From Saccostrea echinata (lineage: Eukaryota): a stretch of 64,000 bases of DNA. Below are positions 29,279-31,576 of this stretch, in pieces; the first letter of the stretch is position 1, and every line of letters starts with the position of its first letter. The notes beneath the pieces were generated by a model that saw nothing but the letters and a program-made list of their open reading frames with translations, searched no databases and had not been told where the DNA came from. Location: positions 1,612,001 through 1,676,000 of the forward strand of contig NW_026889786.1 of NCBI RefSeq assembly GCF_033153115.1, given 5' to 3'. A program made the translations under genes and the position numbers.

Positions 29279-31576
29279 TAACACAAGTGAACTTGTGATG
29301 AAATTTATTAAAAGATAATTTACGAAATATAAATGTAGAAGTTTGTATATCCGAAAATAAATCGAGTAAAGTTACATAAAACAAAGACGATTTGAAATGC
29401 TCACACACGGACACACACACAAACGTTTTGGTAACTCGGAATAGTCCAGAGTAAAATTGTATTTTCTTGATGACGGAATATCCAGTACATCTAATATTCA
29501 CGTCCGGGATAGTCCACGGCGGTTCTAACACTGATTCTCTCACACAACACATGGCATTCACTCAAACTTCAATTAACACATTTACGCAATTTTCACACAT
29601 ACGAGTCGGACACTCTTTAAGGCAGAGGATTGACACTAATTCCTTAAATAAGTATTGAGTGGCAATTTCCTTTTTACTGCCTAAACATTTTAATTGTTAG
29701 ATAAATAATTTTAAGTATATGAAGCATTAAAAATCATTCTTTTTATGAAATCAAATTTTGTTAGATTGTAAATTAATTTTGTAAAATTTACTATGTGACA
29801 ATCCTTCCCCTCTCCCAGTGAGACTCTGTCCCAGAGTCTACAAATTCTCAAATTATTGAATAATATAAATATGACAAGGGTATATATATATTGAATTTTT
29901 AAACAATTTGTAAAAACTCTCTGACAGTCCGGAGCTCAAAGTCACAATCCATAAAAGGGAACATAATTTGCTGTCGGTACTGAAGACTGTCGGGGACAGG
30001 ATGAAAAGCGCTGTTGTTGTGAAGGTTGATACGTCCGCACTACAGGATATGGTGATACGGAGTAGTTAGGGGATGCAGCATTCTGTTGTTCTTTATTATG
30101 TTTCGGTCTCTTTTTCCTCGAGAACTGTTTAGCTTCTAGGCGGTTAGGATGACCTGGCGGGTACCAAACTTTTCCTGTTCTGTGCGCTTCCATAGCTGGC
30201 ATTTGTGTGGAGGCGTCGCTGACGTCCCTAGCGTTACAAGTGTCCGTGTTGATCCCGACACTTTTCTTCTGCATTGGAACTGGAACACAGGGTGACGGTG
30301 GCGCTAACTTAATAAAGCATAGTTGTCGCTCCTTTGCAACGAGCCGATCAGCCACTGAATGAAGGGATTCTTTGAGTTCATAAATGTCGGTCTCCATTCT
30401 TCCGATTCTCTTTTCAAGGGCTTTGTTCTTCGTGCGCGCGTCTGTGAGTTTGCCTTCCAAGTCCTCAACATGTACTTTTTTCCTTTCCTTCTCGTCTTTG
30501 TTCTTTTTCCACGCGGCCGAGAGTTTACACTCTAAAGATGAAAGTTTTTCTTCCTGGCTCACAATTGTTTTCTTTAAAATCCGTATCTTATCAGTTAATG
30601 ACGCCCTTTTACGGCTTTGTTCAGCTGAAAACGTTGGAAACAGAGAATTGATTGCAAATATAAACTCAGCCTGAGACTCAATGCTGTAAAATGGCAATTC
30701 CATGGCAGACACGCGTCTAAACTTAAATTCGTTCCAGCGTTTTTGGTCTCGTTCTTTCTTGTGGACGGACTTCTTTTTCACGACAAGAATGGTCACTTGC
30801 TTTGTTTCAGAGTTCCTACATTGTTTGAAAAGATGGCCAAATTGTTGACATTTTAAGCACTGTCGATTCATCGCCTTACACTTGATAAGATGTCCTTTGT
30901 AGAATAACTCTCCACAACGATAACACATTGAATTTGACATTTTTACGCGATTTTGGGGAAATTAACTGCTTTGGTAAGAGTCTTGGTACCAGGATCTAGG
31001 TATTGCACAGGAAATGCAATACCCCCGGGTAAATTACCCGGATTCTCCACCAATTAACACAAGTGAACTTGTGATGAAATTTATTAAAAGATAATTTACG
31101 AAATATAAATGTAGAAGTTTGTATATCCGAAAATAAATCGAGTAAAGTTACATAAAACAAAGACGATTTGAAATGCTCACACACGGACACACACACAAAC
31201 GTTTTGGTAACTCGGAATAGTCCAGAGTAAAATTGTATTTTCTTGATGACGGAATATCCAGTACATCTAATATTCACGTCCGGGATAGTCCACGGCGGTT
31301 CTAACACTGATTCTCTCACACAACACATGGCATTCACTCAAACTTCAATTAACACATTTACGCAATTTTCACACATACGAGTCGGACACTCTTTAAGGCA
31401 GAGGATTGACACTAATTCCTTAAATAAGTATTGAGTGGCAATTTCCTTTTTACTGTCTAAACATTTTAATTGTTAGATAAATAATTTTAAGTATATGAAG
31501 CATTAAAAATCATTCTTTTTATGAAATCAAATTTTGTTAGATTGTAAATTAATTTTGTAAAATTTACTATGTGACA
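29279..31576 (-). mobile_element. Young non-autonomous LTR retroelement (522-bp LTRs, single ORF, no pol)
   Basis: LTRs 31576-31055 and 29800-29279 are near-identical (one C/T difference seen, 29660 vs 31456). PBS TGGTGGAGAATCCGGGT (tRNA-Ala-like) 31052-31036; PPT GGGAGAGGGGAAGGAT 29816-29801; candidate TSD ACCAG/ATCAG. Confidence 0.93.
29942..30940 (-). CDS. 332-aa LTR-element protein: N-terminal tandem zinc knuckles, basic patch, long coiled coil, P/Q/S-rich tail
   Basis: CYRCG..H..C and CLKC..GH..C at aa 6-41; heptad-rich aa ~110-210; intact ATG-to-stop ORF filling most of the internal region. Confidence 0.85.
   Translation of the reverse strand: MSNSMCYRCGELFYKGHLIKCKAMNRQCLKCQQFGHLFKQCRNSETKQVTILVVKKKSVHKKERDQKRWNEFKFRRVSAMELPFYSIESQAEFIFAINSLFPTFSAEQSRKRASLTDKIRILKKTIVSQEEKLSSLECKLSAAWKKNKDEKERKKVHVEDLEGKLTDARTKNKALEKRIGRMETDIYELKESLHSVADRLVAKERQLCFIKLAPPSPCVPVPMQKKSVGINTDTCNARDVSDASTQMPAMEAHRTGKVWYPPGHPNRLEAKQFSRKKRPKHNKEQQNAASPNYSVSPYPVVRTYQPSQQQRFSSCPRQSSVPTANYVPFYGL

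Follow-up and report, generated by a model that had tools for sequence, protein, structure and literature searches.

The window analysed here is a stretch of 64,000 nucleotides of contig NW_026889786.1 from Saccostrea echinata, and it carries a compact element on its minus strand, running from position 31576 to 29279. Its 2298 bp (2.3 kb) read LTR, PBS, ORF, PPT, LTR. Comparison of the two LTRs, both on the minus strand, places the 5' LTR at 31055..31576 and the 3' LTR at 29279..29800. Each is 522 bp long and the pair differs by one mismatch (99.81% identity), as a preliminary description made from the sequence had read it. Their termini, TGTCACA...TGTGTTA, give the element TG..TA rather than TG..CA ends. 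The 18-nt PBS (31035..31052, minus strand) starts two bases past the 5' LTR and is complementary to the 3' end of tRNA-Ala. The preliminary description had called PBS and PPT intact, as they are, and had left the primer unnamed. The tRNA-end pattern that identifies this primer matches 24 times in the genome and not once for the control, and ARAGORN calls a tRNA-Ala at the pattern site in each of three loci tested. The PPT, read from the sequence at 29801..29816 (minus strand) with a 2-nt spacer to the 3' LTR, is retained in the other copies of the family, here named family A, that have a 3' LTR.

The interior measures 1254 bp and holds a single ORF of 332 aa (29942..30940, minus strand), defined by the ORF list and the domain analyses. 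Pfam finds no protease, reverse transcriptase, RNase H or integrase in the element, in agreement with the earlier reading of a 1.25-kb interior with one ORF and none of these enzymes; the ORF itself matches nothing above the Pfam cut-off, neither a capsid nor an enzyme family. With two LTRs, a PBS, a PPT, integrase-type ends, no enzymes and 4-bp target site duplications (TSDs) in dispersed copies, the element belongs among non-autonomous LTR retrotransposons.

No TSD lies directly at the element's own ends, which are flanked by TGAT and CTGG. A 5-bp near-match, CTGAT/CTGGT, was dropped as the element's TSD because family A makes 4-bp TSDs. The actual insertion is larger: it spans 29279-32306 as a whole and is bounded by one 4-bp TSD, CCAG/CCAG (29275..29278 and 32307..32310). 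The preliminary extent of 29279..31576 holds for the element itself and omits pieces of an LTR from a second family, H, an autonomous Gypsy that carries a third frame besides gag and PR-RT-RH-IN. The two parts meet head-to-head at 31577..31583, where 3 nt match the tail of the element's PPT and 4 nt the tail of the H PPT. There follow ~625 bp from the start of the 1558-bp H LTR (31584..32208, plus strand; 96.5% identical to H copies) and then a palindromic fold-back that repeats the initial ~50 nt of the same LTR (32213..32306) and gives the insertion an H-type terminal TGTAACA. The sequence flanking the CCAG copies is a decayed Gypsy integrase frame, continuous across the site. The inverted repeats beside the element had been considered as a MITE; they are the start of the H LTR, and the candidate was discarded.

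A DNA search of the 923-Mb assembly returned at least 44 family A matches, with 40 of 78 candidates scored. Four copies keep the full open frame, at 100, 94, 80 and 78% identity, and the rest are mostly solo LTRs. The element is multi-copy, whereas a single copy would have told against the mobile satellite proposed earlier. A perfect 4-bp TSD flanks 14 of the 22 full-length LTR matches, and a 5- or 6-bp duplication flanks none; four of the eight matches that have no perfect TSD are 3' LTRs behind a PPT. The full copy C3 has identical LTRs and the TSD TCAG/TCAG, and family A is therefore young.

The ORF is under purifying selection. By the Nei-Gojobori method, with bootstrap and two kappa values, dN/dS between family A subfamilies is 0.20-0.34 in five of six pairs, with upper confidence bounds of at most 0.56. 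The constraint is strongest in the knuckles (0.13), followed by the motif described below (0.16-0.22) and the coil (0.20-0.22), with about 1 in the linker and 0.5-0.6 in the tail. The youngest pair in family A, C37/C3, gives 0.9-1.1, and ten pairs within a second family of such elements, family B, give 0.50-1.07 with few changes. These last ratios are consistent with drift after insertion but lend no support to selection. A value near 1 across copies, or a detectable capsid, had been named at the outset as the mark of a simple deletion product of gag; the subfamily ratios lie well below 1, and no capsid appears by Pfam, AlphaFold or Foldseek.

The protein consists of a knuckle pair (aa 6-41), a basic helix (aa 57-84), a coiled coil (aa 106-212) and a disordered tail. 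Both knuckles had been described as CCHC-type; knuckle 2 alone is canonical CCHC, and knuckle 1 is the variant C-x2-C-x7-H-x3-C. The basic helix, with 11 K/R residues in aa 55-80, bears a motif of the form KS..K..RD..R, 2-3 residues, ELPF. The AlphaFold model (mean pLDDT 75.7, pTM 0.43) comprises the knuckles, two helices (59-80 and 90-100), one long helix (106-212) and the disordered tail, and contains no capsid fold. Foldseek found no match in PDB or BFVD at E<=0.001, the best PDB sequence match is a lentiviral nucleocapsid (NC; E 1.3e-8), and the nearest ESM Atlas clusters, all below 0.9, are uninformative. Across 116 aligned members of the protein family, Pfam reports zf-CCHC in 67 and coiled-coil families here and there. 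The 25 listed of the 74 Pfam families matched include none of capsid type, each remaining family matching one member, and the same scan detects Retrotrans_gag in three helper-type Gags used as a positive control. The arrangement proposed in the preliminary description, with N-terminal knuckles, no recognisable capsid, a basic patch and then a coiled coil of ~100 aa, agrees with these results.

Comparison with Gag proteins places the similarity precisely. In hhalign only 42-43 columns align, corresponding to the knuckle pair, at 96.8% for the Mag-type Gag and 93.4% for H. A knuckle profile scores 37-38 bits against L177/L178, 21-23 against L170-L173 and L102, 17.5 against L100, about 10 against L122 and L125 and less than 8 against H. 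The elements L170-L173 and L177-L178 are ones we take to be Mag-type from their single gag-pol layout. The likeness of the knuckles to a Mag/Gypsy nucleocapsid, suggested before any search, is borne out, the Mag-type NC being the best match. Because it matches better than the NC of H, the knuckles may have originated outside the lineage of the likely helper H. A profile of the post-knuckle motif, built from family members, matches mini elements only among the loci scanned, and neither motif nor coil occurs in the scanned Mag, H, L100, L122 and L125 polyproteins. Mag-clade Gypsy elements share with the window protein a knuckle pair with a C-x-A-x4-C linker; they differ in having a single gag-pol frame, with a capsid before and a protease after the knuckles, and no motif. 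An ordinary derivative of Gag by internal deletion, either TR-GAG-like or a decaying Mag element with the ORF as a leftover, would explain the 37-38 bits of the knuckle pair. It would not explain a match confined to those few columns, the absence of motif and coil from the scanned polyproteins, the purifying selection on the ORF, the different PBS of the Mag-type elements fetched (L170-L173) or the identical architecture found again in 109 library clusters. This origin is hardly credible and already largely refuted.

The coiled coil was also modelled as an oligomer, with three copies of aa 1-215, a number that was chosen and not derived. The copies form a coiled-coil bundle with a score of 0.57, against 0.02 for the best control; contact agreement among runs is at least 28% and pLDDT at least 57. 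In a two-copy calibration, which the three-copy model does not resemble, 21 of 30 solved homo-pairs pass the mark for self-association and none of 23 single chains does (17 of 29 and none of 30 in eukaryotes); coiled coils may also pass through memorisation by the predictor. The protein is accordingly modelled, with that reservation, as self-associating through its coiled coil of ~105 aa.

The same protein is encoded by at least seven families of mini-LTR elements in this genome (A-F and L174), a shared protein family that the preliminary description had overlooked. Family B, found through weak protein matches, has LTRs of ~424 bp with TA..TA ends and nine copies whose LTR pairs are 97-100% identical. 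The exact 16-nt PBS led to others: it occurs 53 times in the genome, against one occurrence for a control, and sites were examined as 30 intervals of +/-1.5 kb, 40 stretches of 10 kb and one more. This survey yielded four further mini families, C-F, which are 1.9-2.4 kb long, have LTR pairs that are 96.8-100% identical and encode the same protein, as well as one mini element that has no ORF (G) and several autonomous or gag-bearing Gypsy families. L174, the seventh mini family, has a variant PBS and LTRs that are 92% identical. The proteins of B-F are 20-29% identical to that of the window. BLASTN among seven representatives aligns only the LTR end, the PBS, the leader and a short stretch before the PPT; the LTR bodies do not align with one another. 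Family F has a single knuckle, and its LTR shares 93% identity with the LTR of an element that bears gag. The ORF-less element G retains the leader, and its LTRs are 99.5% identical. Because F is one-knuckled and G is young yet ORF-less, such elements may do without the protein in cis or receive it in trans.

Sequence libraries extend the protein family well beyond this genome. A word-indexed protein search found six homologues (33-62%), and a profile search over 1.84 billion representatives found 295 matches at E<=1e-10. The motif is present at 18 bits or more in 109 of 148 newly listed library clusters (50% identity), all of them 376 aa or shorter, and starts at a median residue 75; the remaining 39 clusters comprise proteins with several knuckles, long coiled coils and a small number of borderline members. 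Two knuckles occur in 88 of the 116 aligned members, preceded by a median of 21 and a maximum of 127 residues. Ten library clusters that were looked up are ENA or Logan sequences. When a library homologue served as query against the genome, 88 matches came back, in frames of 361-365 aa or shorter with four exceptions. Two of these four long frames match the knuckle region only; the other two, which match homologue aa 19-110, are Mag-type gag-pol frames that have no motif, and were rejected as such. The library homologues, too, may sit in mini LTR elements. Metagenome scans returned none among 602 candidates with query A7 and two among 66, weak and knuckle-only, with query A8. A viral scan for homologues found none among 19 candidates, and none of 26 candidates is a longer fused form of the protein, which is weak evidence against such forms. 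Two small-share sequencing runs of one study gave, as contigs, short pieces of 85-99% identity, mostly LTR.

A helper Gypsy had been postulated, and family H, co-integrated with the window element, is the candidate for it. Element cDNA is joined to H LTR sequence in two of the four family A copies with an open frame. The second case, C7, opens with an entire H 5' LTR, changes at an Ala PBS to the family A interior and goes on with an A LTR, a PBS tail and 49 nt of H; the composite is flanked by the TSD TATG. Full H copies have a 4-bp TSD in three of three cases. Because the element is fused to an H LTR within one TSD, and because of the C7 chimera, H or a close relative is likely to be the helper. 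We infer joint synthesis of A and H cDNAs and their insertion into the genome as a single molecule; C7 resembles the product of an intermolecular strand transfer at the primer site common to both. The helper had further been expected to share the PBS and LTR ends of the element. Several autonomous families do carry the exact PBS, whereas the genomic PBS of H is an imperfect Ala match and the LTRs of H and family A have no sequence in common.

The fusions could instead be secondary, formed by single-strand annealing at PBS or PPT beside an existing H or by later recombination, the true helper being another Ala-primed family of the L122, L125 or L100 type. An integrase-independent primer-homology route that produces tandem elements has been described for Tf1 (PMC11042837), and the exact PBS of the other autonomous families would suit such a helper. 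A single copy of family C and another of family B begin 2-4 nt behind the end of an H LTR, and for these two abutting cases, C83 and C1, a shared TSD was not demonstrated; insertion by primer homology beside existing copies can explain them. It fits poorly the two TSD-bounded composites. The window insertion and C7 each lie in one perfect 4-bp TSD, in each the H fold-back terminus, unlike the normal H 3' end, makes up one end, and the window junction is head-to-head without homology. No H LTR was found near 27 other mini-element loci. A secondary origin of the fusions is on this evidence quite unlikely, and co-integration with H remains the preferred reading.

Taken together, the element is best described as a protein-coding satellite of tRNA-Ala-primed Ty3/Gypsy retrotransposons, a reading to which we assign a probability of about 0.9. 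Its RNA offers a second conserved feature. Between the PBS and the ORF lies a structured leader of ~110 nt (30945..31053, minus strand), which folds into two hairpins and a closing stem formed with the PBS. It is conserved in families A, B, E and F and in element G, and not clearly in C and D. The folding z-score is -3.9 for the window, -2.6 to -3.1 for three others and -1.3 for G. In the consensus 98% of cells are paired, and three of 24 pairs, in hairpin 2, are changed on both sides; the alignment has nine related rows from which the structure itself was derived, and the covariation comes mostly from two family A rows. Rfam gives no family-level match for the leader and no ribozyme family, including the hammerhead. 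Helenus elements, treated below, carry tRNA-derived sequence inside the LTR; the Rfam scan of 29000-31800 gives no tRNA match at E<=1, a result that bears less on decayed A/B boxes. Retrozymes are defined by a hammerhead ribozyme in the LTR, and the Rfam scan shows none in the window element.

For the satellite protein, an RNA-loading or chaperone mechanism has somewhat better than even odds. Translated from the satellite RNA, the protein would bind that same RNA in cis through its knuckles and basic helix; the probable site of binding would be the conserved structured leader, in which the PBS is hidden. It would then multimerise and cluster satellite RNA, and would help to anneal tRNA-Ala, deliver the RNA into helper Gag particles, or both. 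Reverse transcriptase and integrase of the helper would afterwards copy and insert the satellite. Such action in cis would account for the retention of a gene under selection by an element that is not autonomous.

The protein of the same satellite could also be a regulator or competitor, either a bZIP-like activator or de-silencer of the LTR, or a partner that co-assembles with helper Gag and biases or restricts it. The basic helix does stand ahead of a heptad coil, Pfam gives a weak match to bZIP_1 (E 0.013, under the cut-off), and the young, ORF-less element G is consistent with supply in trans. However, the bZIP_1 match falls at aa 152-193, in the coil and outside the basic helix, and the knuckle pair, which resembles a retroviral NC, is constrained like the motif (dN/dS 0.13). 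A purely trans-acting product would moreover be open to exploitation by ORF-less copies, and the ORF is kept in seven families. This role appears unlikely beside the RNA-loading one.

LINE-1 ORF1p, of a non-LTR element, is a cis-acting coiled-coil oligomer with nucleic-acid-binding modules, an RRM and a CTD. The resemblance of the satellite protein to it is a functional analogy only, knuckles standing here in place of RRM and CTD, and PDB searches with the window protein returned neither a sequence match nor a fold match to it. A capsid-free bipartite system could be built on this analogy, in which an ORF1p-like protein pairs with a young pol-only family of the same PBS and no Gag capsid is needed. 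A pol-only family of 7.1 kb is present (L095 and L119, with L096 shorter). Its PBS is exactly the Ala one, its LTRs are 99.7-99.9% identical, its PR-RT-RH-IN frame is open over 1645 aa and its leader of ~400 nt holds no gag frame; the predicted self-association of the satellite protein would suit such a pairing. The physical fusions found so far, however, involve the gag-bearing H. Gag-less parasites of a full helper are also already known in BARE-2 (PMC4350172), and the pol-only family is therefore explicable without novelty. We regard the bipartite system as highly unlikely. Equally long odds attach to the broader proposal that LTR satellites which code for protein form an old and widespread class, in which the knuckle-motif-coil protein coats the RNA in place of Gag and works with a pol-only partner. 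The preferred account is still a satellite that loads its RNA into Gag particles of H or a close relative.

To our knowledge, two kinds of non-autonomous LTR element have been recognised, those that code for nothing (TRIM, LARD) and those that retain a Gag with a capsid (TR-GAG, MaLR), and the window element corresponds to neither. TR-GAG elements are non-autonomous plant elements whose Gag has a capsid domain (Retrotrans_gag/UBN2) followed by the knuckle (PMC4350172, Chaparro et al. 2015). The window element is like them in being non-autonomous, multi-copy and below 4 kb, with two LTRs, a PBS, a PPT and one ORF; it differs in having no detected capsid and N-terminal knuckles followed by a conserved motif and coil. 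TRIMs are shorter than 1 kb and non-coding, and the biv-TRIM is described as having no canonical PBS and no partner found (PMC6934838). Helenus elements of animals make 4-bp TSDs and are thought to be mobilised by Gypsy through a shared PBS; the bivalve primers given for them are Lys, His, Ile, Pro, Glu and Ser, not Ala (PMC10886601, Kojima 2024). All are small non-autonomous LTR elements, but that of the window is 2.3 kb long, coding and physically linked to its helper. The separation from TRIMs and gag-only elements drawn in the preliminary description accordingly stands, on a length of 2298 bp, a selected ORF and no capsid found. The mammalian ERVL-MaLR elements (THE1/MST/MLT), whose interior is homologous to ERV-L gag (PMC11359688), offer an analogy only, as long-lived pol-less and env-less LTR elements of an animal genome with a single ORF of unknown function; here the partner is a Ty3/Gypsy and the Gag-like part is only a 42-aa knuckle pair.

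A literature search, with Repbase, Dfam and most subscription papers outside its scope, returned no description of such an element type. The passages considered from PMC6238403, PMC10294476 and PMC13524379 make no mention of one, and the PBS 12-mer, in one orientation, is not found in the 15 of 36 bivalve rows covered from the supplement of PMC13524379. Some of the families could already stand in catalogues among unclassified LTR repeats. What appears to be new is a non-autonomous LTR element that has an uncharacterised protein family of its own and for which a candidate helper can be identified.

The dedicated, capsid-less protein is kept by no fewer than seven families of a single genome and recurs in more than 100 deeply diverged library clusters, and its motif is covered by no Pfam family. 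This suggests an unrecognised satellite strategy, in which the parasite supplies an RNA adaptor of its own, beyond mimicking packaging signals. Satellite/helper chimeras bounded by TSDs single out a candidate for the helper, something seldom achievable with elements of this kind. The short structured leader and the small soluble protein would give access in vitro to how non-autonomous RNAs enter helper particles.

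The composite insertion in the window, in which the family A mini-LTR satellite is fused head-to-head to LTR pieces of its candidate helper, the autonomous Gypsy family H, is surrounded by a decayed Gypsy integrase segment. Just beyond it, at about 32415–32590, lies an LTR piece ~78% like the family F/L106 LTR; both observations concern the flanks 29240–29278 and 32307–34200. The mini-LTR family F in turn shares an LTR, at 93% identity, with a truncated gag-bearing element (L127 and L106). A further LTR element, L105 (G000 C16), is 1.8 kb long and has an LTR pair 99.5% identical. 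It carries the structured leader known from the coding families A, B, E and F, lacks an ORF, and is a non-coding member of the mini-element group.

A primer-binding site (PBS) variant with 3–4 bases added after the first 13–14 nt recurs, the same in kind, in several copies of families A and B (L002, L003, L005 and L050–L058). Genes for tRNA-Ala, -Lys and -Arg were called by ARAGORN in tandem clusters at L134, L136 and L139 (G000 C2), with tRNA-SeC called in two of the loci.

An exact Ala PBS is also found in larger elements. In one of these, the autonomous element L125 (G000 C56), gag is open over 471 aa and pol over 1443 aa. Its third frame, of 828 aa, has no Pfam match and resembles an envelope gene in position only. 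Three others, L095, L119 and L096 (G000 C1, C44 and C10), form one young Gypsy family with LTR pairs of 99.7–99.9% identity and an open pol frame of 1645 aa, shorter in L096. No gag frame was found in the ~400-nt leader of this family, which resembles BARE-2 as a gag-less element.

In family H the third frame measures 263–339 aa, and the one scanned against Pfam gave no match. All three full H copies examined (L161–L163) open with an extra copy of the first ~50 nt of their LTR, inverted or folded back, with the end TGTTACA, which suggests that U3-end formation in H is systematically odd. A fold-back of the H type lies in the window at 32213–32306.

Among the library homologues of the satellite protein, P0103, P0110, P0120, P0124, P0135 and P0136 carry a second, C-terminal knuckle pair, so that both ends of the coil are capped by knuckles.
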